Part shown: piece after piece, positions 24,031 to 53,020 of the stretch | Position numbering within the stretch: the first letter of the stretch is position 1 | Layout: each line of letters starts with the position of its first letter | Source: Candidatus Flemingiibacterium sp. | Lineage (GTDB): Bacteria > Bacillota > Clostridia > Oscillospirales > CAG-272 | DNA: 64,000 nt | Direction of reading: 5' to 3' | NCBI GenBank assembly: GCA_045636265.1 | Contig: JAZTXD010000078.1 | Coordinates: 66,967 to 130,966, forward strand | Program-made: the position numbers and the translations under genes | The notes under the pieces: generated by a model | The model's input: the letters and a program-made list of their open reading frames with translations, nothing else | Database searches by the model: none | Told to the model about the DNA's origin: nothing

Positions 24031-24047
24031 ACTATGTCTAATCCTCC

Positions 24048-24521: not shown

Positions 24522-24538
24522 AATAATTCTCCTTCAAT

Positions 24539-26001: not shown

Positions 26002-26031
26002 TTTAGTATTCTCCTTATTATTTTAGTTGCA

Positions 26032-26907: not shown

Positions 26908-26932
26908 ATTATCAAACCTCCATAATTAATAA

Positions 26933-31836: not shown

Positions 31837-31901
31837 GATATCACATCCTTTCTGCCAAGAGTATAACAGATACTAAATTTTCTTGCAAATGTGCGAGATA
31901 A

Positions 31902-32774
31902 TTATGCCGAAAATTTTTCAGTAATTTGTTTTTTGATTCTCTCAATACGCTTTCTGATACCGCTTGCATTGGCATATCCGTAATCTTTTGCAAGCGCAGT
32001 ATAGGTCTCTCCATTGGCATGGCGCACCAAGAGCTCACGATCTTCGGGTGAAAGTAAAGCAAGACATTGTTCAAGATACACTTTGTCGATGACCTCGGAG
32101 GTAACGTCTGTTGCATCATCCAAAGGATATGGTGTATATTGACCGCTTGCATCTTTGGGCCCACCGCGCTCAATAGATACCTTTTCTACAAGCTGACCGC
32201 CGCTCATGTGCTCAATTTTGCGCTTAGCGTTTTGCAGAGAGTAATTGTTAGGCTTGCCATGATTGTAGTCCGAATAGTCGGGCAACTCTTTGAAAATCTC
32301 TGCGATCTGAGGAAGATTCATCAAATAAGCGTTTATATCCCACTCGCGTTTCAAAAGCTCATCAATATTATCCTCGGTATATCCCTTGTCTGCCATTGCT
32401 TTGATCAGCGCATCACGAACCTCGGGTGTGCCTTGGATAAGGGTAGTGTAATAAGTAACGGTATCGTAAAACGCTTTATAAAACAACATCAGCGGATTAT
32501 CTTCGCCCGAAAAGTGTGATGGCGGAAACGCCAAACTCAAATCGTGGCGCGTATCCATACTTGTCGCTTTAACCATCTGCACAAGATCCTTAAGATATTT
32601 TACCACCTCTGGCGGCATTTCTTTAAGAGGAAGGGAGACTGCGATATTAGATATGTCAAGCGCATCGTCTCTGTTTTTATCTACGACCTCCTGCACAGTT
32701 CCGTTACCAATCGTGTTTACAAGCGCAGTTACAAATTCATCCGCACTTTGTTGAATAGTTCTTTCTTCTGCCAA
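31902..32774 (-). CDS. hypothetical protein with C-terminal sigma-70 region-4-like HTH
   Basis: LLSPEDRELLVRHANGETYTALAKDYGYANASGIRKRIERI. Confidence 0.55.
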   Translation of the reverse strand: MAEERTIQQSADEFVTALVNTIGNGTVQEVVDKNRDDALDISNIAVSLPLKEMPPEVVKYLKDLVQMVKATSMDTRHDLSLAFPPSHFSGEDNPLMLFYKAFYDTVTYYTTLIQGTPEVRDALIKAMADKGYTEDNIDELLKREWDINAYLMNLPQIAEIFKELPDYSDYNHGKPNNYSLQNAKRKIEHMSGGQLVEKVSIERGGPKDASGQYTPYPLDDATDVTSEVIDKVYLEQCLALLSPEDRELLVRHANGETYTALAKDYGYANASGIRKRIERIKKQITEKFSA

Positions 32775-32779
32775 TAGTT

Positions 32780-33394
32780 TTACCTCCTGTTAATTCTTTT
32801 CAAAACGTGCTCTGCCACGCCTTGAATGATAATGTTATCGTAGATCTGATTTGGATAGCTCTCCTTATCTTCATTCTCTGCAATCAATATAACCTTGCGC
32901 TTGGAGCGATCATAGGATAGTGTTTTGAGAGTAGCCGAGTCATCGATCAATGCAACTACGATATCTCCCTCATTAGCGGTGTTCTGCTTACGGATCAACA
33001 CTAAGTCGCCGCTATCGATTCCTGCGTTAATCATAGAATGACCTTTTGCTCGAAGCCAAAAGTATTCGCCTTTGCCGATGAAATCGGTTGGAATCGGTAA
33101 AGAATCATCGTACTGCTCCTCTGCATAGATCGGAGAGCCGCAGGCGATATCACCGCTGATTGGTGCGTGGAACTTGCCTTGCAGTTCTTCAATGTAGGGT
33201 GTAATGATGTGTCGCCCGTCAAAATACAGTTTGTCCATTTCTGTCATACGGTGCAGATATTTGTGTACCGTTCCCACCGCCAAAGAGAGGCTTCGCGAGA
33301 TCTCCGCAATCGTCGGAGAGTAGCTGTTTTCGTTGTAATATTCGTCTACAAAGGCGATAATCCTCTGCATCGTTTCTTCGCTTAAATATCGCAT
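32780..33394 (-). CDS. LexA-like repressor (wHTH + S24 peptidase)
   Basis: N-terminal PTIAEISRSLSLAVGTVHKYL. Cleavage-region analog GDIACGSPI. GHSM (Ser) and ATLKTL (Lys). Confidence 0.8.
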   Translation of the reverse strand: MRYLSEETMQRIIAFVDEYYNENSYSPTIAEISRSLSLAVGTVHKYLHRMTEMDKLYFDGRHIITPYIEELQGKFHAPISGDIACGSPIYAEEQYDDSLPIPTDFIGKGEYFWLRAKGHSMINAGIDSGDLVLIRKQNTANEGDIVVALIDDSATLKTLSYDRSKRKVILIAENEDKESYPNQIYDNIIIQGVAEHVLKRINRR

Positions 33395-33596: not shown

Positions 33597-33625
33597 TTGA
33601 AATTTTTGCCTCATTATGTTATAAT
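33597..33625 (+). promoter_or_regulatory. promoter TTGAAA-17-TATAAT for the helicase/R-M operon
   Basis: Read directly from the sequence, 43 nt upstream of ATG 33668. Confidence 0.65.
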
Positions 33626-33667
33626 GTATACTGTATTATTATTTCATTTGTTTTTTAGGAGTGTAAT

Positions 33668-33880
33668 ATGGCTGCAAGTTATAAAAAACTCTGGAAATTG
33701 CTGATTGACCGTGATATGAAGAAGAAAGATCTTCGTGAACTGACTAAACTCAGCTCCTCAACCATTGCCAAAATGACAAAGAATGAACCCGTTAGTACCG
33801 ACGTCCTTATTAAAATCTGCTCGGTACTTAATTGTGATGTCGGAGATATTATGGAGATCGTTCCCGATAGTAAGGAGTGA
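33668..33880 (+). CDS. small XRE-family HTH protein (controller-like)
   Basis: LWKLLIDRDMKKKDLRELTKLSSSTIAKMTKNEPVSTDVLIKICSVLNCDVGDIMEIV. 4-nt overlap with the next gene. Confidence 0.8.
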   Translation: MAASYKKLWKLLIDRDMKKKDLRELTKLSSSTIAKMTKNEPVSTDVLIKICSVLNCDVGDIMEIVPDSKE

Positions 33881-36800
33881 TTATGGAGCTTTTAGATAAT
33901 GTAAATAAAACGCTCAAAGACGATTTGAGTGATACAATACGGGAAGGAAGTCGCGTGTCTATTGCTGCGGCGTGCTTCTCTATGTATGCTTTTCAAGAAC
34001 TGAAAAAGCAGCTTGAAGGTATTGACGAGTTAAGATTTATATTTACCTCTCCAACCTTTACCACCGAGAAAACGAAAAAGGAAAGCCGTGAATTCTACAT
34101 TCCAAGACTGAGCCGCGAGAAGAGCTTATATGGAACAGAGTTTGAGGTTCGTCTGCGCAATGAGCTTACGCAGAAAGCGATTGCCAAGGAATGTGCAGAA
34201 TGGATCAGGAGCAAGGTTGCGTTCAAGTCCAACATTACTGGCGAAATGCTGATGGGCTTTGCAAATGTCGATGAGACAAGCTATTCGCCCATCAATGGCT
34301 TTACAACGGTTGACCTCGGTTGTGAGCGCGGAAACAATATGTTCACTGCTATTATGAAGACCTCTGCTGTTGAAAATAGTCGTTATTACCTCAGTAAATT
34401 TGATGAGATTTGGAGTGACCCTTCTCGCCTTCAGGACGTAACAGAAGAGGTTATCGAGAGCATTTCTACGGCATACAACGAGAACTCTCCCGACTTCATT
34501 TACTTTGTAACGTTGTTCAATATTTTCAGCGAGTTTCTTGAGGATATTTCCGAGGACGTTCTTCCCAATGAAGCTACCGGATTCAAGGAAAGCAAGATTT
34601 GGAGCATGCTCTACAACTTCCAAAGAGATGCCGTTCTTGCAATCATCAATAAGCTTGAAAAATTCAACGGTTGTATTCTTGCGGACAGCGTAGGTCTCGG
34701 TAAAACATTTACCGCTCTGGCTGTTATCAAATACTACGAGAACAGAAACAAGTCCGTTCTTGTTCTTTGTCCCAAAAAGCTTTCAAACAACTGGAACACC
34801 TTCAAGGACAACTACCTTAATAACCCTATCGCATCGGATAGACTGCGCTACGACGTGCTTTATCACACCGACCTTTCGAGAACTCACGGAACGTCGAACG
34901 GTCTTGATCTTGACCGCTTGAATTGGGGCAACTACGACTTGGTGGTTATTGATGAATCGCACAACTTCCGCAACGGAGGAAAATCCGACATTGAAAATGA
35001 GAAAGAAAATCGTTACCTCAGACTGCTCAACAAGGTTATCCGTCAAGGAGTTAAGACTAAGGTTTTGATGCTCTCGGCAACTCCGGTTAATAACCGCTTC
35101 AACGATCTTAAAAACCAGCTTGCGCTTGCCTACGAGGGCAATTCCTCTCTAATTAACGGAAAGCTCAATACAAAGAACTCCATTGAAGAGATCTTCCGTC
35201 AGGCACAGCGAGCATTCAATGCTTGGAGCAAGCAGGAGCCTCAAAATAGAACAACCGAAAATCTTCTTAAGATGCTCGACTTTGATTTCTTTGAGGTTCT
35301 TGACTCGGTAACGATTGCACGTTCCAGAAAGCACATTGAAAAATACTACGATACAACCGACGTGGGCTCGTTCCCACAGCGCCTCAGACCGATATCGCTC
35401 TATCCTCCGCTCACCGACTTGGAGGGTGCTATAAACTACAACGAGATATTCGAGCAGCTTATGCTTCTGAATCTCGCAATCTACACTCCCTCTCACTACA
35501 TACTTGACAGCAAGAAAATCAAGTACGCTGAGCTCTATGACGATGAGAGAGTCAGCGTAGGATTTACACAGGCGAACCGTGAGCAAGGTATTCGCCGCTT
35601 GATGGCTATCAATTTGATGAAGCGTATGGAAAGCTCTGTGGCTTCCTTCAGACTCACACTCGGCAGAATTGATGACCTGATTAAAACCACTATTGAAACA
35701 ATTGACAACTTTAATAAGTACGCTGATACGCAGCTTAATCTTGAGGATATTTCTCACCTTACCGACTTTGACTTCGATGATCAGAACGCCGATGAGCTCT
35801 TCTCGTTTGGCAAAAAAGTTAAAATCAGTCTGGGAGATATGGACTATCTCTCATGGCGAAGAGATTTGAACAAGGATAAAGAAATCCTTGACTTGCTTAC
35901 CGTAATGGTGGCGGACATTACTCCCGAGCACGATAGTAAGCTTCAAGAGCTGTTTGACGTCCTCAAGAACAAGATTGAGAACCCCATCAATCCCGATAAC
36001 CGCAAGGTGATTATCTTCACTGCGTTCTCGGATACGGCAGAATATCTGTACGAGAACGTAAGCAAGTACATTCTCAAGAAATTCCGCTTGAATACGGCTA
36101 TGGTTACGGGCTCGGTTGAGGGACGCTCAACTGTACCGCGCCTGCGCTGTGATCTTAACAATGTTCTAACGTGCTTCTCACCCATATCCAAGGGTAAGGC
36201 GCTTTTGATGCCGAATGATAATACCGAGATTGACGTGCTCATCGCAACAGACTGTATCTCGGAAGGTCAGAACCTTCAGGACTGCGATTTCCTCATCAAC
36301 TACGATATTCACTGGAACCCCGTTCGTATTATTCAGCGATTCGGACGTATCGACCGTATTGGCAGTAAGAATGAGCGCATCCAGCTTGTGAACTTCTGGC
36401 CCGATGTTACTCTTGACGAATATATCGACCTCAAGGCGCGTGTTGAAACTCGTATGAAGATCGTTGACATGACGGCGACCGGTGATGACAACATCCTTGC
36501 TGAGGAAAAGGCAGAGCTTGAATACAGAAAAGCTCAGCTCAAGCGCTTGCAGGAAGAGGTTGTTGACATTGAGGAAATGTCCAGCGGTATTTCAATTATG
36601 GATCTCGGTCTTAATGAGTTCCGCCTTGACTTGCTTGAATACGTAAAGACAAATCCCGATCTTGATAAGACTCCGTTTGGACTTCATGCAGTAGCAGAAG
36701 CAAAAGAGGATTGTCCTCCCGGTGTCGTATTTATCTTAAAGAATCGCTCCAACAGCGTAAATATCGATAATCAGAACAGACTCCATCCGTTCTATATGGT

Positions 36801-37503
36801 TTATATCAGCGAGGACGGAGAGGTCGTCTGTGATCACTTGTCTCCAAAGGCTATGCTTGATAAGCTTAGATTCCTTTGCAAAGGCAAGACGGCTCCCGTT
36901 CCGGAGCTTTACCGTCAGTTCAATAAGGAAACAAAGGACGGACGTGATATGGCGGACATCTCAGCATTGCTTGGCGATGCAATTTCCTCCGTCATTCAAA
37001 CCAAGGAAGAAAGCGAGATTGACGCATTTCTTGGTGGCAGTCAGATGAGTTTCCTTTCAAATGAAATCAAGGGACTTGATGACTTCGAACTTATCTGCTT
37101 CCTCGTTATTAAAGAGCCAAGCACTCCAATCGTAAAAAAGACTCCGTTCAGATTGGTTGTTGCAGGCGGTCGCGAGTTCGAGAACTACAAGCTTCTTTCA
37201 ACTCAGCTCGACAAGTATCTCCCCGACATCATCAAAACCCATGACATTATCATTCTCAGCGGTTGCGCTAAAGGTGCCGATAGTCTGGGTGAGCAGTATG
37301 CTCGTGAGCACGGATTTGCGATTGAACAGCATCCGGCTGCCTGGGAGCGTTACGGCAATGCTGCAGGCCCTATCAGAAACAAGGAAATGACAGGTGTAGC
37401 AGATGCAGTTGTTGTTTTCTGGGATGGAAAGTCCAGAGGAAGCAGAAGTATGATCAACTGCGCCAAGGAACAAGGCATTCCTTGCAAGATCGTAAGATAC
37501 TAA
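33877..37503 (+). CDS. SNF2-family helicase with C-terminal SLOG/DUF2493-like domain
   Basis: ILADSVGLGKTF (I), VVIDESHNFRN (II), LSATPVNN (III), QRFGRIDRIG (VI). C-terminal ~125 aa carry SGCAKGADSLGEQYA...AAGPIRNKEM...VVVFWDGKSRGS. Confidence 0.85.
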   Translation: MIMELLDNVNKTLKDDLSDTIREGSRVSIAAACFSMYAFQELKKQLEGIDELRFIFTSPTFTTEKTKKESREFYIPRLSREKSLYGTEFEVRLRNELTQKAIAKECAEWIRSKVAFKSNITGEMLMGFANVDETSYSPINGFTTVDLGCERGNNMFTAIMKTSAVENSRYYLSKFDEIWSDPSRLQDVTEEVIESISTAYNENSPDFIYFVTLFNIFSEFLEDISEDVLPNEATGFKESKIWSMLYNFQRDAVLAIINKLEKFNGCILADSVGLGKTFTALAVIKYYENRNKSVLVLCPKKLSNNWNTFKDNYLNNPIASDRLRYDVLYHTDLSRTHGTSNGLDLDRLNWGNYDLVVIDESHNFRNGGKSDIENEKENRYLRLLNKVIRQGVKTKVLMLSATPVNNRFNDLKNQLALAYEGNSSLINGKLNTKNSIEEIFRQAQRAFNAWSKQEPQNRTTENLLKMLDFDFFEVLDSVTIARSRKHIEKYYDTTDVGSFPQRLRPISLYPPLTDLEGAINYNEIFEQLMLLNLAIYTPSHYILDSKKIKYAELYDDERVSVGFTQANREQGIRRLMAINLMKRMESSVASFRLTLGRIDDLIKTTIETIDNFNKYADTQLNLEDISHLTDFDFDDQNADELFSFGKKVKISLGDMDYLSWRRDLNKDKEILDLLTVMVADITPEHDSKLQELFDVLKNKIENPINPDNRKVIIFTAFSDTAEYLYENVSKYILKKFRLNTAMVTGSVEGRSTVPRLRCDLNNVLTCFSPISKGKALLMPNDNTEIDVLIATDCISEGQNLQDCDFLINYDIHWNPVRIIQRFGRIDRIGSKNERIQLVNFWPDVTLDEYIDLKARVETRMKIVDMTATGDDNILAEEKAELEYRKAQLKRLQEEVVDIEEMSSGISIMDLGLNEFRLDLLEYVKTNPDLDKTPFGLHAVAEAKEDCPPGVVFILKNRSNSVNIDNQNRLHPFYMVYISEDGEVVCDHLSPKAMLDKLRFLCKGKTAPVPELYRQFNKETKDGRDMADISALLGDAISSVIQTKEESEIDAFLGGSQMSFLSNEIKGLDDFELICFLVIKEPSTPIVKKTPFRLVVAGGREFENYKLLSTQLDKYLPDIIKTHDIIILSGCAKGADSLGEQYAREHGFAIEQHPAAWERYGNAAGPIRNKEMTGVADAVVVFWDGKSRGSRSMINCAKEQGIPCKIVRY

Positions 37504-37520
37504 AATAAGGAGACGTTGAA

Positions 37521-38123
37521 ATGCTCGGTTTTCCAAAGAAATCGGAACTGCGAAAGCCGCTTCATAAGAAGGCGATTTTCGAGAGATTAAAACTGAATAC
37601 AGCTCAGCAGGATCGAGTGGATACCGACATTTCACGACTCTACTTCGTCAATGAGATCTCGCCGTTCAGCGTGGGTATTGCAGAGGGCGAGACGGTAAAA
37701 ATGTTCCACGTCATTCTCGTGTCCCTCAAGCGAAAGGACTATGATGAGCGAACCATCTCAATGTTATTCCGTTTGATCGACAACAATATGGTTCTCGTGC
37801 TTGAGTATGAGAATGAAAGCCGTGTAGCTATTTATCACGGAAAGTTGATACAGACCGAATGGAAGCCTACCGAGTCATTTTCTTACGCTTTGCAAGGACT
37901 TGATCTTGATTCGGTTTGGAATAACCTGATCATTCAAATCGGCAACATCGAAATGGATGAGGGCAACACAATTGACGAACAGATTGCCGTAGACGAGCAG
38001 CGCGCAAAACTTCTCAAAGAAATAGATAGACTTGAAAAGCTCGCCCGCGCTGAAAAGCAGCCGAAGAAAAAATTTGAGTTGGTGCAACAGATAAACAAAC
38101 TAAAGGATGGTGAAAATAAGTGA
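37521..38123 (+). CDS. DUF4391 domain protein
   Basis: MLGFPKKSELRKPLHKKAIFE... and overall pattern recalled for DUF4391. Always seen by me next to SNF2 + methylase genes. Confidence 0.65.
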   Translation: MLGFPKKSELRKPLHKKAIFERLKLNTAQQDRVDTDISRLYFVNEISPFSVGIAEGETVKMFHVILVSLKRKDYDERTISMLFRLIDNNMVLVLEYENESRVAIYHGKLIQTEWKPTESFSYALQGLDLDSVWNNLIIQIGNIEMDEGNTIDEQIAVDEQRAKLLKEIDRLEKLARAEKQPKKKFELVQQINKLKDGENK

Positions 38124-38968
38124 GAAAAAGTATATTTGATATTGCATCTGCGTCTATAAATATTTCAAATGAAGTTGACCGAATTGTTTCCATGTCTATT
38201 AACGAAAAGACCACTTACTATTCACCATACGACCTCTCGCTTTTTGAGTTTGTAGATAAACGTTGTTTTCGTGATTGGATTTATAGAGGTCACTTTGTTG
38301 ATGTGAAAGATTTTTTGGATGCTATCAATTATAATGAAATTAAAAAAGCCTCCAAAAATGATAATGTTGATGCCTTTATGACACTAATAGAGGTGACATA
38401 TAATTTTTGGAATTTAGCACATCGCGATATTGTTGATGAAAAAACAGGGAGTAAGTGGCAAAACAATTTTTATCATTTACGAGATGTTATGCTTGATAAT
38501 TTAGAGAAATACAACCACAAAGCTTATATTGACGATGAACGAGTTTTAATTATTGAAGATAAGCCCGAAGTCACTGCGGTGGCAGAAATTGTTGAACAAG
38601 ATTTGGCAATAGACATTATCCGGTACAATCATCGTTCTCTGCAAGGTGAATTGGATTTGAAGAAGACCATTTTGCTTTCACTTGGTGCTGAATTAGAGCC
38701 AAGGCGAAAAGAATTGCAGGTGCTTAACAAACAGCTGTCTGAAGATATTTTCTTTATGCTGAACAATCTTAATGTAAGACATAACAACAGAAGCAAGAAG
38801 GATAAGAATTACAAAGAATATGTGGCAAAAATGCGAAAAGACCGTCTCGAAAAATGGTACGATGAATTGTATGAAATGATGTTGCTTGCGTTTTTGCTTT
38901 TGGATAATGTTGAGCGAACATCCCAAGTAAAAGAATTGAAGGACAAAATTGTGGGAGGAACAAACTAA
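38120..38968 (+). CDS. hypothetical protein (AT-rich insert)
   Basis: 282-aa ORF overlapping both neighbours by 1-4 nt. No recognised motif. Confidence 0.55.
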   Translation: MRKSIFDIASASINISNEVDRIVSMSINEKTTYYSPYDLSLFEFVDKRCFRDWIYRGHFVDVKDFLDAINYNEIKKASKNDNVDAFMTLIEVTYNFWNLAHRDIVDEKTGSKWQNNFYHLRDVMLDNLEKYNHKAYIDDERVLIIEDKPEVTAVAEIVEQDLAIDIIRYNHRSLQGELDLKKTILLSLGAELEPRRKELQVLNKQLSEDIFFMLNNLNVRHNNRSKKDKNYKEYVAKMRKDRLEKWYDELYEMMLLAFLLLDNVERTSQVKELKDKIVGGTN

Positions 38969-40848
38969 TGGATAAATTAAAAATGCACAGTCTGAACAAG
39001 GTTGACGATAATATAAAGAAGATTGGAGCCCTGTTCCCGAACTGCTTGACCGAGAGGAAGAACGACGCGGGTGAGGTAGAGTATGCCATTGATTTTGAAT
39101 TGCTGAAGCAAGAGCTTTCTACCGTTATTGTAGAGGGCAACGAGGAACGCTATCAGTTTACTTGGCCCGACAAGAAGAAGTCTATACTTGCTGCCAATGC
39201 TCCAATCAGCGATACTTTACGCCCCTGTCGTGAGGAAAGTGTGGATTTTGACAATACCGAAAATCTCTATATTGAAGGCGATAATCTCGCGGTTCTCAAA
39301 CTTCTTCAGGAAACATATCTCGGTAAGATTAAGATGATCTATATTGATCCTCCCTATAATACAGGCAACGACTTCGTTTATAATGACGATTTTGCAGAGA
39401 GCGTGGATGAATATCTTGCGCATAGTGGTCAGTTTGATGACGAAGGAAATAGGCTTTTCTCAAATACAGAAAATAACGGTAGATTTCATACGGATTGGCT
39501 AAATATGCTTTATCCTCGACTTAAATTAGCCAAAGACCTCCTTACGGATGATGGCGTTATTTTCATAAGCATTGATGAAAACGAAGTGCAAAATCTCAGA
39601 AAGCTATGCGATGAAATTTTCGGCGAACATAATTTCATTTCACAATTAGGCTGGCAGAAGGTATACTCTCCCAAAAATCAAGCGCGATACTTTTCCAATG
39701 ATTACGAATTCATTTTGTGCTACTGCAAAAACATTGAACACTTTTCATTAAGATTGCTTCCCAGAACGGCAGAAATGAACGCGCGCTACAAAAATCCTGA
39801 TAATGATCCTCGTGGAGATTGGAAACCGGGAGATTGTGTTGGAAGTGGAGAAAGAAAGAACGGATACTATGATGTTATTAGTCCTATAACAGGAAAAGTG
39901 TTCAATGTTCCACAGGGCAAACACTGGGTATATGCACCTGAAACAATGAAGCAATTACTTGAAGATAATCGAATCTATTTTGGTAAGGACGGTAATGCTT
40001 TCCCTGCAGTAAAACAATTCTTGTGTGACGTGAGTGGTCGAAGAGCTTCCAGTTTGTTAATGTATGAAGATTACGGTCATACTGACATGGCGAAAAAGGA
40101 CTTAATAAAATTGTTCCAAGATCTTGTGAAGGTTCCGTTTGATACACCAAAGCCTGTAAAGTTGATTAAGATGTTGAGTATTTTAGGAAGTAACGAAAAC
40201 GATATTATTCTTGACTTCTTCTCGGGATCAGCTACCACTGCACAGTCAATTTTTGAATTGAATGCAGAAGATGAAAAAAGTAATAGAAAATTTATCTTGG
40301 TACAACTCCCTGAGCCCTTAGAAAACAACGATGGTGCGGCTAAAATAGGACTTCACACCATAAGTGATGTTGGAAAGGAAAGAATTAGACGCGCGGCGGA
40401 AAAAGTAAAAGAGGAAAATGGAATAATGGCTCATGATCTCGATCTTGGCTTCCGTGTTCTCAAGGTTGATTCTTCCAATATGAAAGATGTTTACTATAAT
40501 CCCGCCGAATATGAACTTAGCATATTTGATATGCTTACCGACAATATCAAGGAAGATAGAACCCCCGAGGATCTTTTGTTCCAAGTGATGCTTGACCTTG
40601 GCGTGCTTCTTTCCAGCAAGATTGAGGAAACAACTATCGCGGGCAAGAGAGTATTCAATGTAGCTGACGGATTCCTTATTGCTTGCTTTGACGAGCTTGT
40701 AACCGAGGAGACCATTACCGCTATCGCAAAGCAGAAACCCTATTACTTTGTAATGCGCGACAGCTCTATGGCATCCGACAGTGTTGCAACCAACTTTGAG
40801 CAAATCTTCGCAACGTATAGCCCTGATACAGAAAGAAAGGTGCTGTAA
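38968..40848 (+). CDS. mod: site-specific DNA methyltransferase, type III Mod-like (beta-class N6A/N4C)
   Basis: Motif IV IYIDPPYNTGNDF precedes motif I LDFFSGSATTAQS. Confidence 0.9.
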   Translation: MDKLKMHSLNKVDDNIKKIGALFPNCLTERKNDAGEVEYAIDFELLKQELSTVIVEGNEERYQFTWPDKKKSILAANAPISDTLRPCREESVDFDNTENLYIEGDNLAVLKLLQETYLGKIKMIYIDPPYNTGNDFVYNDDFAESVDEYLAHSGQFDDEGNRLFSNTENNGRFHTDWLNMLYPRLKLAKDLLTDDGVIFISIDENEVQNLRKLCDEIFGEHNFISQLGWQKVYSPKNQARYFSNDYEFILCYCKNIEHFSLRLLPRTAEMNARYKNPDNDPRGDWKPGDCVGSGERKNGYYDVISPITGKVFNVPQGKHWVYAPETMKQLLEDNRIYFGKDGNAFPAVKQFLCDVSGRRASSLLMYEDYGHTDMAKKDLIKLFQDLVKVPFDTPKPVKLIKMLSILGSNENDIILDFFSGSATTAQSIFELNAEDEKSNRKFILVQLPEPLENNDGAAKIGLHTISDVGKERIRRAAEKVKEENGIMAHDLDLGFRVLKVDSSNMKDVYYNPAEYELSIFDMLTDNIKEDRTPEDLLFQVMLDLGVLLSSKIEETTIAGKRVFNVADGFLIACFDELVTEETITAIAKQKPYYFVMRDSSMASDSVATNFEQIFATYSPDTERKVL

Positions 40849-41387
40849 TGCTTCCTCAAATGAGCTTTAACTTCAACGGCTTTTATCAAACATGGCTTAT
40901 GCTTGACGAAAAAGTAAAAAACGGTAAAACCGATTGCTATTTGATACCTTGGATCGTCAATGGAGCGTTTGCGTGTGAAGTTGGAATAAAATATATATTG
41001 GCTCAAAATCAAATTGGCTTTAAAAAAGAACACCTCTTACATGAGCTATATAATTTGTTGCCGGATAAGCACAAAGCGGAAATATCAAAAGATTTGTACG
41101 AACAATGTCCCGGATATACATTGGAGCATTTCAATCAAGAAATTTTATTATTATCCGATTCATTCTGCAATTTCAGATATTCTTACGAAAACACGCTAAC
41201 GTTAGATATCAATTTTTTCAAGATTTGGTGTCAAGCAATTTTTAAGCAAGTAAATGCTTATCCAATATATGATTTGGTGGAACGTACCGGCGAATCTGAT
41301 ATTACCGAAGATGAACTTGACCAAAAGCTGCTGGAAGCACAGAACGAAATGCTTTGTAAGCTAAAGAAGAAGGAAAAGCGGAAATAA
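40848..41387 (+). CDS. hypothetical protein (AT-rich insert)
   Basis: 179-aa ORF, TAATG overlap with mod. Confidence 0.5.
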   Translation: MLPQMSFNFNGFYQTWLMLDEKVKNGKTDCYLIPWIVNGAFACEVGIKYILAQNQIGFKKEHLLHELYNLLPDKHKAEISKDLYEQCPGYTLEHFNQEILLLSDSFCNFRYSYENTLTLDINFFKIWCQAIFKQVNAYPIYDLVERTGESDITEDELDQKLLEAQNEMLCKLKKKEKRK

Positions 41388-41422
41388 CAAAAGGTAAATT
41401 TCAATGAAAGGATAACAAAACA

Positions 41423-42121
41423 ATGAGATATCATAGACACATGCGAAATTGGATGACAGCGATTTCTGCTATATTTCTTCTTACAACTATTCTTTTTTCT
41501 TACTTGCAAGAAAAATATTCATGCATTACCGTTTTTGCAATAATAAATAACATTTCGATTTGTATCCTTACAGGCTGTTTAATAGCATTGTTGCAGTTTA
41601 TCATAGGTTATCACAATGCAAAACATGATCACCTTTTGTTGTTTTATAAAAGCATAATTTTGCTTGAGGACAAAATCATTTATTATCCCTATCAACGTTT
41701 GGGGTTTGTTGATGCCGTTTCTGGATTGAAAGATATAAGAGAAGTATTAAATTTTTATTCTGAATCAGTAATTTCATCTTATCGACAAATTGATTTTGAT
41801 GGACGTTGTGACAAGGCGTTGATTTCTGCTCAAACATTATTCACACTATACAAAGATCAGATTGAACCTTTCAAAGAATTCAGAGATACGCTTTGTGATG
41901 GAATTAGATTTATGGACAAAACAGAAGTGGATTTAATTTGCGAAGGAGTCATAGATATTCCAGATGCTACAAGAAAAATGAATGAACTACTGCAAGAAAA
42001 AGAAAAAGCCGTCCAAGATGCTTACAACGATGAAAATGCACGAAAAAAACGTAATGAGGCATACGAAATCTTAGAAACCTATTTGTTTGGCAAATCATCC
42101 AAACAGAAGAAATCAAAATAA
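41423..42121 (+). CDS. hypothetical membrane protein (AT-rich insert)
   Basis: Two or three N-terminal TM segments (AISAIFLLTTILFSYL, ICILTGCLIALLQFIIGY). Confidence 0.5.
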   Translation: MRYHRHMRNWMTAISAIFLLTTILFSYLQEKYSCITVFAIINNISICILTGCLIALLQFIIGYHNAKHDHLLLFYKSIILLEDKIIYYPYQRLGFVDAVSGLKDIREVLNFYSESVISSYRQIDFDGRCDKALISAQTLFTLYKDQIEPFKEFRDTLCDGIRFMDKTEVDLICEGVIDIPDATRKMNELLQEKEKAVQDAYNDENARKKRNEAYEILETYLFGKSSKQKKSK

Positions 42122-42152
42122 GCGATACTATTGCTTAAAAGGAGGTGGACAA

Positions 42153-42884
42153 ATGACGGAACGCATATACCCTGAAGGAGCAAGAAATAATATGCTCGCA
42201 GGAATGTATAGCGAAATCGCTATGGAAGCATATTTCCATGCTACAAAATATTATCGCGTTATTCGAGAAAACGATTATTCTGCTTTTGTAGGATATGAAT
42301 TGTCAGAACTGAATAAGTACATAGTCAAAACTGTTGTTTTTTCTGCCATGTCCATAGAATCTTTTCTAAATGATTATGCTGCTGCATGTTTGGGCGATTC
42401 GGAGTTCTATTCTAATTTTGACAAATTATCTACCATTGGAAAATTTCAGTTGATTGCAAAGTTTATCTTAAAAAGTAAAGTTGAAAAGGACAAGAAATAT
42501 TACTTTTATTTAAAAACGTTGTTTACATTAAGAGATTCTTACATACATAACAAAAGCACTTCATTTGATACTGAGGGCTATGCTACCTTGGAAGAATATT
42601 TGGATTACGCACAAGAAGCATACAAAGAAGAGTTGTCAGAAAAATCATGGAGTTTTGATAAGGACGAAATTGACACCGATTATAGAGGAGCAACCAATGC
42701 CTTGAAAGCAATTAAAGAAATTGCTCTGTATTTTGATGAAAACGATGCAAGGCAAATTGCAATGCATAGATTATTTCATCCGTTGGGATTGCAATTAGGT
42801 AGTGAAAAGGAAAAAGAATACAAGGCAATGGTGTTTTCAGAATTAGGCATTAAGGTGGACGAAAATTATGAAATTCAAATTTAA
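42153..42884 (+). CDS. hypothetical protein with possible HEPN-type Rx4H motif (AT-rich insert)
   Basis: ATG 42153 follows AAGGAGG. LFTLRDSYIHNKS contains R-x4-H. All-helical composition. Confidence 0.45.
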   Translation: MTERIYPEGARNNMLAGMYSEIAMEAYFHATKYYRVIRENDYSAFVGYELSELNKYIVKTVVFSAMSIESFLNDYAAACLGDSEFYSNFDKLSTIGKFQLIAKFILKSKVEKDKKYYFYLKTLFTLRDSYIHNKSTSFDTEGYATLEEYLDYAQEAYKEELSEKSWSFDKDEIDTDYRGATNALKAIKEIALYFDENDARQIAMHRLFHPLGLQLGSEKEKEYKAMVFSELGIKVDENYEIQI

Positions 42885-45800
42885 GATACAACAATACCAA
42901 ACCGACGCGGTTGATGCGGTTGTCCGCGTATTTGATGGACAGCCCTATCAAGATCACGTCAGTTACAGAAGAGATATAGGACAAGCTCAAGTACAGCAAA
43001 TGACATTTTCCGTTGGCGAAAACGGAGAAGTTGAGGATATTGAAACCGGCTTCAAGAACGCGAGTCTTGAGCTTTCCGACGATCAGCTTCTCAGGACAAT
43101 ACAGAAAATTCAGTCGCAGAACAACATTAAGCTCTCTTCGAGCTTGATTAGCGGTAAAAACTGCGGTCGATGCAGCCTTGATATCGAGATGGAAACAGGT
43201 ACAGGTAAGACGTACGTTTATATCAAGACGATGTTCGAGCTGAACAAGAAATACGGCTGGTCCAAGTTCATTGTCGTAGTTCCTTCCATTGCTATTCGTG
43301 AGGGCGTTAAGAAATCATTCGAGATTACCGCCGATCACTTTATGGAGCACTATGGCAAGAAAGCGCGTTTCTTTATCTACAATAGCGCAAACCTTGAACA
43401 GCTTGATAACTTCTCGTCGAGCTCCGGCATCAACGTCATGATCATCAATACTCAGGCGTTCGCCGCTTCGCTCAAAGAAGACGGAAGAAGCAAAGAAGCA
43501 CGTATTATCTTCACTAAGCGTGATAACTTTGGCTCCCGTAAGCCCATTGAAGTTATTGCTGCCAGCCGTCCTATCATCATTATGGACGAACCGCAGAAAA
43601 TGGGCGGCGAGGTGACACAGAATGCGCTGAAGAACTTTAATCCGCTCTTTACCATTAACTATTCTGCAACACACAAAACCCAGCACAACCTTGTTTACGT
43701 GCTTGACGCGCTTGATGCATTCAACAAGCGTTTGGTAAAGAAGATCGAGGTTAAGGGCTTTGAAGTTAAAAACTTCCGTGGAACCGATAAGTACCTCTAT
43801 TTCGAGAGCATCATTCTTTCCAAGAAGAAGCCGCCTATGGCTCGTATCGAGCTTGAGATCGGTTACAACAAGTCCATTAACCGTGAGACTCGTATTCTCG
43901 GTGTAGGCGATGATCTGTTCTATATCTCGCAGGAAATGGAGCAGTATCGTGGTTATACGATATCCGAGGTGGATCCTATCAGAAACACCGTTACCTTTAC
44001 AAACGGCGAAACAATGAAAGCCGGAGAAATTGTCGGTGATATATCCGAAAAGGATATGCGCCGCATCCAGATCAGAGAGACTATTATTTCTCACTTTGAA
44101 AAGGAAGAAAAGCTCTTTAATATGGGCATTAAGACGCTTTCTCTGTTCTTCATTGACGAGGTTGCCAAGTACCGTCAGTATGATGAGAACGGCGACGAGG
44201 TTCTCGGAGAGTACGGTCGTATGTTCGAGGAAGAATATATCAGTGTTCTCAACGAATACACCACGCTCCTTGATACGCCTTATCAGAGATATCTTCGTGA
44301 GACTTGCTCGGACGTTTCTGCCGTACATAGAGGATACTTCAGTATTGATAAGAAGACCGGTCGTAGCATAAACAGTGAGCTCAAGCGTGGTAGTGAGTTC
44401 TCTGACGATATTTCGGCTTACGACTTGATTCTCAAGAACAAGGAAAGACTGCTTTCCTTTGATGAACCTACAAGATTTATCTTCTCACATTCCGCTCTCC
44501 GGGAAGGCTGGGATAACCCCAACGTATTTCAGATCTGTACCTTGAAGCACTCCGACAGCCAAACGGCAAAACGCCAAGAGGTTGGTCGTGGCCTTCGTTT
44601 GTGCGTAAGCCAGTCCGGTAACAGAATGGACGCTGAGAGCTGCGGCCCTACTGTACACGATATAAACCTGCTTACCGTTATTGCGAGCGAGAGCTACCGT
44701 AACTTCGTAACCGATCTTCAGTCCGATATTAAGACCGTTCTTTACGATAGACCTACAGTCGCTACCAGTGAATACTTCAACGGCAAGTACGTTAAGGTCA
44801 ACGACGTTCCTACGCTCATTGATAAGACAACTGCCGACACCATTGAATTCTACCTCATAAGCAACGGCTACGTTGATATGAAGCGTAAAATCACAGATAA
44901 GTATCGCATGGACGTTCAGATGGGAACTGTTGCTCCACTTCCTGAAGAGCTCCTTCCTATGACCGAGGGCGTTCAGGCACTTATTCAGTCGGTTTACGAT
45001 GATTCTATTCTTGACGATATGTTTGCCGATGCAAAGGAAGCTGCCGTTACGGATAACCCCTTGAACGATAACTTCGCTAAGAAAGAGTTCCAAGCACTCT
45101 GGAAACAGATCAATCACCGCTACGCCTACACTGTTGACTTTGACAGTGCAGAGCTGATTGCCAAGGCGATTGCTCACATTGATGAAAAGCTCTTCGTATT
45201 CGAGCTTCAGTACACCACTTCTATCGGAAGACAGAAAACCGAAATGAACGAGTACGAGGTTGGAAGAGGCGATTCATTCGGTTCTGTTAAGACGAGAACT
45301 CAGACGCTTCATCAGGCGGCAACGAGTCAGATCAAGTACGACCTTATCGGTAAAATCGCCGCAGGTACGACTTTGACGAGAAAAACTATTGCAGCGATCC
45401 TCAAGGGATTACGTCAGGATAAGATTTATATGTTCAAGAATAACCCGGAGGAATTTATCTCTAAGGTTATCAAGCTTATCAACGAGCAGAAGGCGACTAT
45501 GATCGTTGAGCATATTTCCTACAACCCCATTGAGGGAGAGTTTGACAGCGGTATCTTTACTGCGGAAAAGAGCAAACAGGCCTTTGATAAAGCGTTTAGA
45601 GCTGAGAAGGCTATTCAGGACTACGTATTTACCGACGGTTCTGCCGAGCAAAGCATCGAGCGCAGATTTGCGCAGGATCTTGATGCTGCCGCAGAGGTTT
45701 GTGTGTACGCAAAGCTCCCCAAGGGCTTCCATATACCCACTCCCGTTGGCAACTACTCGCCTGACTGGGCTATTGCTTTCTACGAGGGCTCTGTGAAGCA

Positions 45801-45978
45801 TATCTACTTTGTTGCGGAAACGAAAGGCACTATGGAGAGCCTTAATCTTCGTCCTATTGAGCAAGCAAAGATTTCCTGTGCAAAGAGACTCTTCAACGAG
45901 ATCTCCACAAGTCAGGTAAGATATCACGACGTTGATAGTTACCAAAGTTTGCTGAACATTATGGGGGCGTTAAAATAA
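42868..45978 (+). CDS. res: type III restriction enzyme Res subunit (helicase + PD-ExK nuclease)
   Basis: METGTGKTYVY (Walker A), IIMDEPQK (DEAH-like), SALREGWDNPNV, C-terminal YSPDW...FVAETKG nuclease motif. Confidence 0.9.
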   Translation: MKFKFKIQQYQTDAVDAVVRVFDGQPYQDHVSYRRDIGQAQVQQMTFSVGENGEVEDIETGFKNASLELSDDQLLRTIQKIQSQNNIKLSSSLISGKNCGRCSLDIEMETGTGKTYVYIKTMFELNKKYGWSKFIVVVPSIAIREGVKKSFEITADHFMEHYGKKARFFIYNSANLEQLDNFSSSSGINVMIINTQAFAASLKEDGRSKEARIIFTKRDNFGSRKPIEVIAASRPIIIMDEPQKMGGEVTQNALKNFNPLFTINYSATHKTQHNLVYVLDALDAFNKRLVKKIEVKGFEVKNFRGTDKYLYFESIILSKKKPPMARIELEIGYNKSINRETRILGVGDDLFYISQEMEQYRGYTISEVDPIRNTVTFTNGETMKAGEIVGDISEKDMRRIQIRETIISHFEKEEKLFNMGIKTLSLFFIDEVAKYRQYDENGDEVLGEYGRMFEEEYISVLNEYTTLLDTPYQRYLRETCSDVSAVHRGYFSIDKKTGRSINSELKRGSEFSDDISAYDLILKNKERLLSFDEPTRFIFSHSALREGWDNPNVFQICTLKHSDSQTAKRQEVGRGLRLCVSQSGNRMDAESCGPTVHDINLLTVIASESYRNFVTDLQSDIKTVLYDRPTVATSEYFNGKYVKVNDVPTLIDKTTADTIEFYLISNGYVDMKRKITDKYRMDVQMGTVAPLPEELLPMTEGVQALIQSVYDDSILDDMFADAKEAAVTDNPLNDNFAKKEFQALWKQINHRYAYTVDFDSAELIAKAIAHIDEKLFVFELQYTTSIGRQKTEMNEYEVGRGDSFGSVKTRTQTLHQAATSQIKYDLIGKIAAGTTLTRKTIAAILKGLRQDKIYMFKNNPEEFISKVIKLINEQKATMIVEHISYNPIEGEFDSGIFTAEKSKQAFDKAFRAEKAIQDYVFTDGSAEQSIERRFAQDLDAAAEVCVYAKLPKGFHIPTPVGNYSPDWAIAFYEGSVKHIYFVAETKGTMESLNLRPIEQAKISCAKRLFNEISTSQVRYHDVDSYQSLLNIMGALK

Positions 45979-45990: not shown

Positions 45991-46027
45991 AGCCGCGGTA
46001 TGAGCACGATGCGCTCATACCGCGGCT
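45991..46027. terminator. bidirectional terminator (14-bp perfect stem)
   Basis: GCCGCGGTATGAGC...GCTCATACCGCGGC between the convergent res and tnpV genes. Confidence 0.8.
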
Positions 46028-46384: not shown

Positions 46385-46635
46385 AATCAAATTCTCCAAT
46401 CAAATATTTTTTACAAGGTCATTTTACCATTTTTGTCGAACGTCGGCAAATGTGTGAAATGGCTTTTTCTTTTTTTACTCCGAAAACTTCGGAGCAAGTT
46501 GCGCTGAAGATGGGAATAAAAAATATTTTTTGAAGCTCAGGACAAATTTCGCGTTTTCGATACGGTGTATTAGTGAGAGAACTTCGGTGCAACTTGCACC
46601 GAAGTAAAAAAGCAAAATTTGAAGGAGAAAACAAA

Positions 46636-47559
46636 ATGAACGAAATGCTTGAACAATTGAAGATTGATCCCGAATTTGAAAAGGTCATCCCACCGCTGAC
46701 CAAAGACGAGTACCATCAGCTTGAAGAAAATATTCTTGACGATGGCAGGATCATGATGCCGATTGCCGTGTGGGGTGACATCATTGTGGACGGACACAAC
46801 CGCTATCGTATCGCCCGTGAGTATGGGGATATTCCGTTCTCAACAACACAGCTAACCTTTGCCAATCGTCACGAGGCGATTGCTTGGATATGTAAAAACC
46901 AGCTTGGCAGGCGCAATCTGAGCGATGAGCAGAAGGCATATTTGCTCGGTAAACGCTATTCCGCCGAGAAGCAGATCGAGATGCTACGCGATGAAAACGG
47001 CAGGTTTACTCCGTTGGGACAAAATGACCCAACGGGTGATAGCGTTCGTACAAGCGAGCGTATTGCAAAAGAAATTGGCAAGAGCGAGAAGTACGTAAGA
47101 CGGGCAGATGAATACGCGCGAGCGCTTGATCTTGCAGATAGCGTTTGTCCCGGTGTTAAGAAAGATATATTGTTTGGCGTAATCAATCCTACGACCAAAG
47201 AGGTGGTTGCATTGCTGAAAGCAAACGAGAATGAATTTCCCGATATGATTGATGAGCTTCGAGGAATTAAAAAGCAGGATGAAGAGAAGCTCGAAGAAAG
47301 AGAGCCGTTAAGACGACCTATTGAGGAGAGTATTGTCGATGTAAGTATGGTTGGACTCGCCAATATGTTCATCGACGGTATAAACAATTATCTTACAAGA
47401 TTTCCAAAGTTGCGACTTGATCCTGCGTATATTCCTCGCACGTTAGAAGTAATCGAAGCTGTTCACGATTATTTGGATGAGGTGAAAAAAGATCTTTTGG
47501 ATGCGCTCGCAGAAAGTAATGTTAATACGGACAAACCTCAATCGGAGCAAGAATTATAA
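46636..47559 (+). CDS. ParB-like N-terminal domain protein
   Basis: IIVDGHNRYRIAREYG motif. ATG 46636 follows GAAGGAG. Confidence 0.7.
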   Translation: MNEMLEQLKIDPEFEKVIPPLTKDEYHQLEENILDDGRIMMPIAVWGDIIVDGHNRYRIAREYGDIPFSTTQLTFANRHEAIAWICKNQLGRRNLSDEQKAYLLGKRYSAEKQIEMLRDENGRFTPLGQNDPTGDSVRTSERIAKEIGKSEKYVRRADEYARALDLADSVCPGVKKDILFGVINPTTKEVVALLKANENEFPDMIDELRGIKKQDEEKLEEREPLRRPIEESIVDVSMVGLANMFIDGINNYLTRFPKLRLDPAYIPRTLEVIEAVHDYLDEVKKDLLDALAESNVNTDKPQSEQEL

Positions 47560-47865
47560 CCTCGTGCCAAGATGGCACGAAGCGAAATAGAGAGTGGTAT
47601 GGGTCAAAATGACCCATACCAAAACGAAAATCCTCCATACATAGTGCTTATGCACACCGCCTAAGACCACGCCGTAAATCTTCAAGGAAGGAGGCTCAAC
47701 ATAGTCTGCGGTACGGTTGACGGCAAGAACGAGGGAGATTAGAGACGAGCCACCTTACGGTATAGGGCTCTGTCCTATACTGTAACAAGCATAGCAAACG
47801 TGGCTACGCCCGCTTGCCCGTCTTTGCTTCGGCGCAAAGACACTTTAGGGAGGTGTCCCTAATAC
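47560..47865 (+). promoter_or_regulatory. hairpin-rich non-coding region, oriT candidate
   Basis: Five inverted repeats: 47562-47580, 47595-47621 (11-bp stem), ~47761-47779, 47820-47841 and 47845-47862. They lie immediately upstream of mobC and the relaxase gene. Confidence 0.45.
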
Positions 47866-48161
47866 CCTCGGAATCTACAACACAGGAGGACAATATTATC
47901 GAAAACAAAAAGAAAGAAGAAGTGATCCGCTTCAAGACAACGACGGATCATAAAGCAAAAATCGAACGTGCTGCCGAAAAGCGAGGACTTACGGTATCCG
48001 AGTATCTTCGCCAATCGGTCAATGCAAAGATGAGTCGCGAACGTCCGATGGATTGGTATCCCACCATTGAACGTCTTGAAACCATCTGCGCGGGAGCAGA
48101 TGGAGAAACGAGAGCAGCACTAATTGATCTCATCCGTTCACTCTACAAAGGGGGGGCTTGA
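47814..48161 (+). CDS. mobC: MobC-like ribbon-helix-helix relaxosome accessory protein (start uncertain)
   Basis: IRFKTTTDHKAKIERAAEKRGLTVSEYLRQSV. The track start is TTG 47814. AGGAGG at 47885-47890 suggests a start nearer 47895-47922. Confidence 0.65.
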   Translation: MPVFASAQRHFREVSLIPSESTTQEDNIIENKKKEEVIRFKTTTDHKAKIERAAEKRGLTVSEYLRQSVNAKMSRERPMDWYPTIERLETICAGADGETRAALIDLIRSLYKGGA

Positions 48162-52631: not shown

Positions 52632-52867
52632 TATTTTTTACGAAAGACTAATGGTACAGCCTTTATATAGAAATAGAATGACAGAAAATGAGCATAGACT
52701 AAGACTTCAATTCCTCCGCAAAGTAATATCATTATACGACAGTTTGTCAAATTACGATTATTGTATTACAAAAGTTATCGCCGAGAATAGCGTAAAGACT
52801 AATCTCGGCGGCATTCTTTTAGTCGATTATTACTCACTACATAATTCCAGCAATAAACGCGACAACA

Positions 52868-53010
52868 ATCACAAAATTCCGGCTCAATTTGCCTCAAAAA
52901 TCACAAAATTCCGAAATAACATAATTATTTCGCAAAATTTCGCAAAAAACACTGTAGATTTCGTTATCGTTTCGCTAAATTTTGTTATCATTTCGCTAAA
53001 TTTCGCTATT
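52868..53010. repeat. iteron-like direct repeats
   Basis: ATCACAAAATTCCG x2 (52868, 52900), TTTCGCAAAA x2 (52928, 52938), 21-nt GTTATC(G/A)TTTCGCTAAATTT x2 in tandem (52963, 52984). Confidence 0.75.
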
Positions 53011-53020
53011 ATGCGAAATC

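Follow-up and report, generated by a model that had tools for sequence, protein, structure and literature searches.

Why is a pair of type III-like modification (Mod) and restriction (Res) genes preceded by a large SNF2-family ATPase and a small DUF4391 protein? This question is raised by an operon of Candidatus Flemingiibacterium sp. that lies in a 64,000-nt stretch of contig JAZTXD010000078.1, here called the window, to which all coordinates refer (position 1 being its first letter) unless another locus is named. Nine tightly packed open reading frames (ORFs) were mapped between positions 33597 and 46027 of the plus strand, and the conserved backbone among them is (HTH)-SNF2-DUF4391-Mod-Res, HTH denoting a helix-turn-helix gene. 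In our view the evidence tips towards this backbone being a four-protein, two-ATPase, methylation-based restriction system, in which SNF2 and DUF4391 would act as a loader or licensing module and abortive-infection effectors would be embedded between the core genes.

Conservation of the Four-Gene Backbone

The preliminary description of this DNA stated that SNF2 and DUF4391 recur beside methylase and Res genes, and called for a survey of their co-occurrence. We analyzed 80 loci anchored on DUF4391 in GTDB species-representative genomes, mostly from gut Clostridia and also from Spirochaetota and Bacteroidota bins, and mapped the nine proteins of the window onto them. Where at least 3.4 kb of upstream sequence was available, a full-length SNF2 gene was found immediately 5' of DUF4391 in 65 of 68 loci, with a median gap of 10 nt (30 nt or less in 54/65). 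Among the 60 loci with at least 9 kb downstream, Mod was present in 54 and Res in 50, both being intact and in the same orientation in 49; loci without the intact pair have frameshifts or show displacement by long inserts. The association of SNF2, DUF4391, Mod and Res is far beyond chance, and the stated recurrence has been upheld both by this survey and by copies on plasmids.

The plasmid copies were found with the N-terminal half of SNF2 as a probe, since a tblastn search of plasmids with DUF4391 gave zero matches even though annotated DUF4391 genes are present there, the sequences being too divergent. Annotated plasmids that carry genes for a helicase-related or SNF2 protein, DUF4391, a methyltransferase and a DEAD/DEAH Res were found in E. 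coli, Listeria, Mycolicibacterium, B. cereus, Raoultella and E. faecium, and thereby span Pseudomonadota, Bacillota and Actinomycetota. The small protein of the Listeria copy is unannotated, and a copy on an Acetobacter plasmid has lost Res next to an insertion sequence (IS) element. The operon was present in 10 of 5,426 complete E. coli genomes. A cargo-free E. coli copy, on pHH194M-140K (L082, 9007-18035), recurs without differences in strains HS30-1 and STK39-3-E. Two plasmid loci show variant arrangements. On a Raoultella plasmid (L086, 8102-19908) a WYL-domain regulator replaces the HTH protein, and a 900-aa UvrD-like helicase, reminiscent of ArmD of ARMADA II, occupies the position between DUF4391 and Mod. 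The Rhizobium plasmid NZ_CP072872.1 (L090, 1648-10976) encodes an HTH protein, an SNF2 protein of a different family without the N-terminal domain, a methyltransferase, DUF262 and a related Res, and has no DUF4391.

In the 48 complete loci the mean pairwise identity is 77% for SNF2, 77% for Res, 60% for Mod and 56% for DUF4391. The distances of SNF2, DUF4391 and Res track one another (rho 0.71-0.75). For DUF4391, rho is 0.71 with SNF2 and Res, against 0.47 with Mod, whose divergence is concentrated in its target recognition domain (TRD).

Organization of the Operon

The operon is a single transcription unit that extends from one promoter (33597-33625, plus strand) to one terminator (45991-46027). 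The promoter, TTGAAA-17 nt-TG-TATAAT, matches the consensus at 11 of 12 positions and has an extended -10 element, and the start coordinate 33597 corresponds to its -35 box. Its position is conserved, as the pattern TTGa-N17-TGnTATAAT could be aligned 5' of the HTH gene in more than 20 related loci. At the other end, Res is followed by a terminator-like, bidirectional hairpin of the intrinsic type with a stem of 15-17 bp and 10-11 GC pairs, the strongest site of its sort within 33.3-46.7 kb. The first gene (33668-33880, plus strand) encodes a Cro/C1-type HTH protein of 70 aa (Pfam HTH_26, E = 1e-21), a putative regulator of the operon. Homologues of this protein head the operon in 26 of the 80 loci; in the plasmid versions the place is taken by different HTH or WYL regulators. 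Restriction-modification (R-M) systems controlled by C proteins begin with a small HTH gene and have a palindromic operator (C-box) in its promoter; an alignment of 24 upstream regions, in which the promoter itself is conserved, revealed no conserved operator.

The preliminary description had listed five genes, HTH, SNF2, DUF4391, Mod and Res. All five are present on the plus strand where it had placed them, and they are the ones that profile scans with Pfam, PADLOC and NCBIfam name, but the inventory was short. Four further ORFs (about 2.8 kb) encoding proteins of 282, 179, 232 and 243 aa had been left unnamed, as had the two cassette hotspots in which they lie; they match no family above threshold in the three collections. 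The overlaps reported at 38120-38123, 38968, 40848 and 42868-42884 are real, although each of them involves one of the unnamed genes, and the junction sequences are GTGA, TAATG and 17-nt overlaps. A further overlap, at 33877-33880 between HTH and SNF2, would need a GTG start with zero spacing to the AGGAG sequence. The ATG at 33883 is the likelier start of SNF2, because AGGAG lies 6 nt 5' of it and the homologues begin with MEL.DN, and with this start the two genes do not overlap.

The SNF2 and DUF4391 Proteins

The SNF2-family ATPase (33883-37503, plus strand; the ORF opens with GTG at 33877) has 1206 aa from the ATG and 1208 aa from the GTG, and matches Pfam SNF2-rel_dom, Helicase_C and YAcAr. 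A degenerate HKD/PLD-like region (residues 1 to about 235) makes up its N terminus and is followed by the two SNF2 lobes (245-413 and 704-829). An uncharacterised stretch, at about 850-1080, lies between the second lobe and the YAcAr/SLOG domain of the C terminus (residues 1092-1159; nt 37150-37353). The SLOG tail occurs in just 13 of the 48 complete loci, and sequencing depth over it is low also in relatives of the operon from metagenomes. The ATPase motifs are intact (GLGKT at 273, DESH at 359, QRFGRIDR at 820), and the PDB matches of the protein are RapA and remodellers. SNF2 enzymes typically displace proteins from DNA, and the protein of the window is probably a double-stranded DNA translocase that looks active.

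For the N-terminal domain, the best PADLOC model of the protein is PDLC01075 'HKD+Snf2' (E = 3e-131, residues 4-1077), and from residue 5 onwards the sequence runs collinear with that of a PLDc_2/NgoFVII-SNF2 protein from cyanobacteria. The HxK motif is absent from the SNF2 protein of the window and from 15 homologues across four phyla. In view of the collinearity with HKD-SNF2 proteins and of the missing HxK, the domain is best read as a putative inactivated HKD nuclease domain.

The adjacent gene (37521-38123, plus strand) encodes the 200-aa DUF4391 protein (Pfam E = 1e-28), and PF14335, the family number that had been given for it, is correct. The AlphaFold2 (AF2) model, with a pLDDT of 90, consists of an alpha/beta domain followed by a long C-terminal helical hairpin. 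Foldseek found no match at E <= 0.001 in PDB or BFVD (the best being E = 0.08 with a TM-score below 0.2 in PDB, and E = 0.004 with 0.29 in BFVD), a profile search of PDB sequences gave zero matches, and there is no PADLOC model and no PHROGs match. The family is large, with 3,257 close relatives in a database clustered at 90% identity, and the profile collects 1,800 clusters at 50% identity, nearly all of them stand-alone proteins of about 200 aa. Across phyla, conservation is limited to a basic, helical C-terminal motif, EKQxN(K/R)K, and a few N-terminal residues, and this makes it most likely that the protein serves the SNF2 ATPase as an adaptor or co-regulator and is not an enzyme. A PD-(D/E)xK nuclease built on the locally invariant D34, D36, E45 and K70 was considered and rejected, as none of these residues is conserved across phyla.

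Three loci encode a DUF4391 that continues into an ASCH domain at its C terminus, as a fusion protein of 371-375 aa (L037, 9992-11107; L047, 5070-6197; L058, 9992-11107). ASCH is a PUA-like module, for which a role in reading modified bases has been discussed in the case of related systems (PMC12839542). In the three loci an unannotated protein of 410-480 aa comes next, and Mod and Res are truncated or absent. In the literature library that was searched, DUF4391 is mentioned in two papers, neither of them on this system, and no published test of the role of SNF2-DUF4391 was found; given this and the lack of a PADLOC model for DUF4391, it was fair to state that no mechanism had been assigned to the pairing.

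The Mod and Res Subunits

The preliminary description regarded Mod and Res as a recognisable type III pair and proposed a PADLOC classification, which returned MTase_III (E = 5e-232) and REase_III (E = 4e-295), respectively; Pfam matches and motifs agree for both subunits. Mod (38968-40848, plus strand) is a beta-class N6-adenine methyltransferase and specificity subunit (Pfam N6_N4_Mtase, PF01555, E = 2e-33) with intact motifs in the beta-class order, DPPY at 127 preceding FSGSA at 418. Its variable TRD lies at about residues 200-400 (nt 39565-40167) and is 26-33% conserved in the 48 loci, versus 75-88% for the flanks. Phase-variation repeats were sought in Mod, and none were found. Res (42868-45978, plus strand) combines a superfamily 2 (SF2) ATPase with a C-terminal PD-(D/E)xK endonuclease (Pfam ResIII and RE_endonuc), and its motifs GTGKT (111), DEPQ (240) and PD...ETK (965-986) are intact. 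The NCBIfam model PRK15483 scores 402 bits on Res, under its cut-off of 564, which places the protein in a divergent group; Res proteins 44-62% identical to it are mostly annotated merely as DEAD/DEAH helicases. Since the HKD-like domain of SNF2 has no HxK, Res would be the sole evident nuclease of the conserved backbone.

Cargo Genes in Two Slots

Between the core genes the loci differ. Slot 1, from DUF4391 to Mod, holds at least one co-oriented gene in 53 of 66 loci and is empty in 13; slot 2, from Mod to Res, is occupied in the same sense in 47 of 59 and empty in 12. The approximately 144 cargo proteins fall into 80 clusters, and the two slots were not seen to have any cluster in common. 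Among the representatives of the clusters are TIR, DUF4365, DUF6680, RhuM, AbiJ, Abi_C, AbiH, AAA_13, KAP NTPase, SIR2 and ThsB-TIR, and further ones Fic, RES, SieB, Schlafen/AlbA_2, HerA, EC042_2821, McrBC and a UvrD-like helicase. The exchange of cassettes can be followed in close relatives as well. Gut-metagenome contigs that share 90-95% identity with the operon include the four core genes; their depth is at most 0.65 over 38131-38972 and zero in nearly every bin over 41078-42761. Joints were found at 38101>38966, 38104>38956 and 40850>42867/8, with 992 different bases between the joined positions in one of the contigs. Judged by these sequence comparisons, the four unnamed genes of the window are interchangeable cargo in the two hotspots.

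The slot-1 gene (38120-38968, plus strand) encodes a 282-aa protein with no match in Pfam, PADLOC, NCBIfam or PHROGs; its homologues were found in 9 of the 80 loci, invariably in slot 1. Slot 2 holds three genes on the plus strand. The first (40848-41387) encodes a weakly HEPN-like protein of 179 aa (Pfam HEPN, E = 0.023, below threshold). The second (41423-42121) encodes a 232-aa two-TM protein, whose hydrophobic segments were located near the N terminus by a hydropathy scan (residues 10-29 and 32-64); it matches no family in Pfam, PADLOC, NCBIfam or PHROGs, and an exact-match look-up found no copy on record. Neither of these two proteins has a homologue in the 80 loci. The third gene (42153-42884; the ORF opens with TTG at 42087) most likely starts at the ATG at 42153, 4 nt 5' of which lies AGGAGG, and encodes a protein of 243 aa. 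A PHROGs scan of the cargo gave zero matches, and comparison of the four cargo proteins with the 80 cargo clusters by hhalign gave no probability above 27%.

Homologues of the 243-aa protein were found in 2 of the 80 loci, and a family member is alone in slot 2 of another SNF2-DUF4391-Mod-Res operon. In the family, which comprises 97 clusters with a length of about 240 aa, E69, N73, Y75, R127, K134 and S135 are invariant and H132 nearly so, giving a HEPN-like Rx4H motif; the family has no Pfam match, and its profile gave zero matches against PDB sequences. As the family occurs alone in three other settings, the gene fits an autonomous defence-island gene. In L093 (6472-8732) a homologue adjoins a Schlafen-group-3-like helicase, 3' of a type I R-M system, and in L097 (8001-10445) one adjoins a reverse transcriptase-trypsin fusion at an integrase island.

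A third and rarer insertion position, which may be called slot 0, lies between SNF2 and DUF4391, where about 8 of 65 loci (L030, L040, L047, L048, L053, L057, L066 and L080) have one or two extra genes for proteins of 90-368 aa. Slots 1 and 2 offer a catalogue of candidate single-gene defence effectors, several families of which are unannotated, including the four of the window.

Proposed Mechanism and Alternatives

We propose that the operon acts from an integrated mobilizable island of a spore-forming Firmicute, where Mod, with its swappable TRD, would recognise a short sequence and mark the host DNA, and Res would cut unmarked DNA. SNF2 and DUF4391 would add a second ATP-dependent checkpoint, which loads, licenses or regulates Mod/Res on DNA and is not a nuclease of its own, in a role that may be analogous to that of MtsA-MtsB in MANTIS or DrmD in class 1 DISARM. 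The four proteins may form a physical complex. The slot cargo would supply stand-alone effectors of the abortive-infection type as a second line of defence, possibly released upon inhibition of the R-M functions, as is PrrC, the abortive-infection effector embedded in the R-M operon of the EcoprrI locus. The single promoter and terminator, the tight packing of the genes and the conservation of the promoter across loci speak for such a joint function. The earlier view of the operon as an augmented R-M or defence system draws its support from comparative genomics alone; any one specific role for SNF2-DUF4391 can be put forward only tentatively.

Several observations weigh against this proposal. 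The HKD-like nature of the SNF2 N-terminal domain rests on weak sequence evidence: the AF2 model of residues 1-240 (51 sequences) reached a pLDDT of 45 and is unusable, giving no structural confirmation of an HKD fold, and the profile of the domain gave zero matches against PDB sequences. The HEPN assignment of the 179-aa and 243-aa cargo proteins is below threshold. Moreover, three plasmids carry a Mod-Res pair with a related Res and no SNF2-DUF4391, namely one of S. hominis, 14 kb in size, one of Lactococcus and, with a Res that is more remote (33% identical), one of Aeromonas. The Lactococcus Res is 98% identical to a Listeria Res that has SNF2-DUF4391, and no remnants of the two genes are left in Lactococcus. 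This indicates a recent separation in either direction, and loss in Lactococcus is plausible because an IS6-family element lies immediately 5' of Mod. From such pairs it follows that Mod/Res may be self-sufficient and SNF2-DUF4391 an add-on. Finally, a few loci retain SNF2-DUF4391 after decay of Mod/Res.

Taken further, these observations would suggest two independent systems that travel together, in which Mod+Res would be self-sufficient and SNF2-DUF4391 would serve separately in defence or maintenance, the operon being shared only through defence-gene clustering. The stand-alone pairs on small plasmids, the nearly identical Res without SNF2-DUF4391 and the loci that keep SNF2-DUF4391 without intact Mod/Res would all be accommodated, and the slots show that unrelated defence genes do accumulate in the operon. 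We nevertheless regard this explanation as improbable, in view of the fixed order, single promoter and co-orientation of the genes in more than 60 species of several phyla and of the co-evolution of SNF2, DUF4391 and Res. Moreover, a separate SNF2-DUF4391 module would be left without an evident effector, since its HKD domain has no HxK, and in the loci without Mod/Res either remnants of Mod or Res are present or a contig end is near.

We hold it to be similarly unlikely that SNF2-DUF4391 protects the host by acting as a remodeller that removes Mod/Res from self DNA or holds it back there, especially on entry into an unmethylated host, and so provides restriction alleviation or establishment control together with the HTH protein. 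Such a need could be expected of a system that is nearly always found on plasmids or integrative elements, and it would suit the displacement of DNA-bound proteins by SNF2 enzymes in general, the PDB matches to RapA and remodellers, and the transcription of SNF2 and DUF4391 ahead of Mod and Res, with Res last. That Mod/Res can exist without the pair is compatible with an accessory role of this kind, but the same stand-alone copies show that Mod/Res can be carried without such protection. The fast evolution of DUF4391 (56% mean identity versus 77% for SNF2 and Res) and its ASCH fusions suit an interface with a changing target better than a housekeeping function.

Least probable of all is a sensor role, in which SNF2-DUF4391 would detect phage DNA or anti-restriction proteins and release TIR, HEPN or membrane cargo effectors behind Mod/Res as first-line R-M: the cargo effectors are mostly without obvious sensors of their own, their families are slot-specific, and the SLOG tail and the TIR or deoxyribosyltransferase-like cargo belong to nucleotide- or NAD-centred signalling families (PMC7824862), yet SNF2-DUF4391 is kept where slot 1 or slot 2 is empty and also in the plasmid copies, of which five of the six complete ones are cargo-free, the heterogeneity of the cargo families is very high, the gene for the 243-aa cargo protein occurs also far from any SNF2 gene, and inspection of the loci, a comparison made by eye with no statistical test, revealed no obvious link between SLOG tail and cargo.

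The two-ATPase restriction system can also be framed more strictly. SNF2(dead-HKD)-DUF4391-Mod-Res would then be a distinct, obligatory four-component class, in which SNF2 and an adaptor of unseen fold are required to load or license Mod/Res, and the slots would hold PrrC-like guard effectors that fire when the machinery is inhibited. We offer this as a possibility that falls short of being probable. If true, it would extend the ATP-dependent methyltransferase-loading principle of MANTIS to the type III lineage. A need for the pair would also add an independent case of ATPase-gated epigenetic self-marking to those of MANTIS and BREX. Type III R-M is treated as a two-protein system. Should SNF2-DUF4391 be needed for methylation or restriction, annotation calls of 'type III R-M' would miss half the machine, and the obstacle that these mobile elements present to phage therapy and gene transfer would hinge on two further targets. 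This would concern a large lineage, in which Mod/Res nearly always comes with SNF2 and DUF4391 and which has members on plasmids of E. coli, Listeria, Enterococcus, Bacillus and Acinetobacter and on integrated elements of gut Clostridia.

Mobile-Element Setting and Neighbouring Genes

That the operon is cargo of a mobilizable element, as had been suggested, fits its surroundings. Upstream, a minus-strand group (30304-33394) encodes a serine recombinase (30304-31836; Pfam Resolvase, Recombinase and Zn_ribbon_recom), a 290-aa ORF and a LexA-like S24 repressor (32780-33394; Pfam Peptidase_S24). The repressor gene is divergent from the operon and has a promoter with a 12/12 consensus match on the minus strand (33465-33437). 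The same recombinase-HTH-SNF2 layout was found in L095. Downstream on the plus strand, genes for a NikA-like protein, a MobA/VirD2 relaxase and ParB (47814-50445; Pfam NikA-like, Relaxase and ParB_N) are followed by one for a rolling-circle Rep. The region is bordered by host genes at about 17 kb and about 60 kb.

Between Res and the NikA/relaxase genes lies a gene for a 328-aa protein (46573-47559), weakly ParB-like according to PHROGs. The rolling-circle Rep (REP_ORF2-G2P) is encoded within 51342-58197, together with an AAA_14/DUF4143 ATPase and a DUF6076 protein, and a tRNA-Pro gene lies beyond, at 59081-59156; an Rfam scan of 28-60 kb detected this tRNA only. On the other side of the operon, the minus strand carries a prokaryotic ubiquitin-like conjugation cluster (18025-28153) with two Prok-RING_1 proteins, ThiF/E1, a zinc-ribbon protein, an E2 (UQ_con)-FHA fusion, a trypsin-like peptidase, JAB and JAB+LysM. 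A 91-aa ORF at 25726-26001 could be the ubiquitin-like substrate of this cluster. An M78 (IrrE-like) peptidase with an HTH pair is encoded at 28225-29452 (minus strand). Outside the island, at 8388-11506, a gene for a 667-aa HD-domain protein (minus strand) adjoins an ADP-ribosylglycohydrolase gene.

Comparison With Known Systems

With classical type III R-M systems (EcoP1I/EcoP15I) the operon shares a beta-class N6-adenine Mod with a central TRD, located 5' of an SF2/PD-(D/E)xK Res. It differs in its Res, which shares only about 28% identity with EcoP1/P15-type Res proteins from plasmids and scores under the NCBIfam equivalog cut-off, and in that the SNF2-DUF4391 pair precedes Mod/Res. The adjacent two-gene arrangement of Mod and Res is not found in the window, where three cargo genes separate them.

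Class 1 DISARM and ARMADA II, the latter experimentally protective (10.1101/2025.09.22.677730), resemble the operon in combining an SNF2 ATPase, an adenine methyltransferase and a second SF2 helicase. Unlike these systems, the operon encodes no DrmA, DrmB/DUF1998 or separate PLD gene, and no DUF1998/DrmA-type gene was detected among its nine proteins or in the scanned flanks. The NCBIfam model DISARM_DrmD gave 158 bits on the SNF2 protein versus a cut-off of 610, and the PADLOC DrmD matches are partial, covering the ATPase lobes only. Membership in DISARM was rejected because DrmA/DrmB are missing, and membership in ARMADA because ArmC is missing; DUF4391 and Res are not named among the components of either system (10.1101/2025.09.22.677730). 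On the B. cereus plasmid NZ_AP022858.1 (L085, 4134-17876), DrmA and a DUF1998 DrmB are encoded directly 5' of SNF2-DUF4391-methyltransferase-Res, an arrangement that suggests a composite, DISARM-like six-gene system.

Effectors embedded in R-M and BREX operons are an already known theme, and auxiliary effectors of this kind have been described (PMC12839542). As in EcoprrI-PrrC and in the auxiliary effectors of type I R-M and BREX, genes of the abortive-infection type lie here between modification and restriction genes, and AAA_13, HEPN/Abi, RhuM, Schlafen and TIR are cargo families shared with those reported for BREX and BR loci. The present case differs in its type III-like host operon, in two (occasionally three) fixed slots with slot-specific families, and in that the cargo of the window itself belongs to unannotated families.

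The MANTIS system (Gao_RL, BREX-related type 2) consists of MtsA, an AAA+ protein, the small protein MtsB, the methyltransferase MtsC and the HKD-SF2 helicase-nuclease MtsD (bioRxiv 10.64898/2026.09.23.753747; PMC12839542). The adenine methyltransferase of MANTIS is activated only with the help of the ATPase and of the small protein, which has no structural relatives; the effector is the HKD-SF2 protein, and inverted sites are preferred for restriction (bioRxiv 10.64898/2026.09.23.753747). The operon of the window differs in several respects. Pfam, PADLOC and NCBIfam scans found no gene for a DUF499 AAA+ protein (MtsA); DUF4391 was not matched to DUF3780/3870 by the searches run, which included no direct sequence or structure comparison with MtsB; the methyltransferase is a PF01555 type III Mod; and the HKD domain is without its catalytic motif, the nuclease being a separate type III Res. 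Membership in MANTIS was rejected because the DUF499 ATPase is missing and the HKD-like domain has no HxK. The two have in common four proteins with two ATPases and a methylation-based mode of action, a small relative-less protein beside an ATPase, a subunit that joins HKD with SF2 or SNF2, and fusions to ASCH, reported for DUF3780 and seen here for DUF4391. Judged by this analogy, MANTIS would be the closest characterised functional analogue of the SNF2-DUF4391-Mod-Res backbone.

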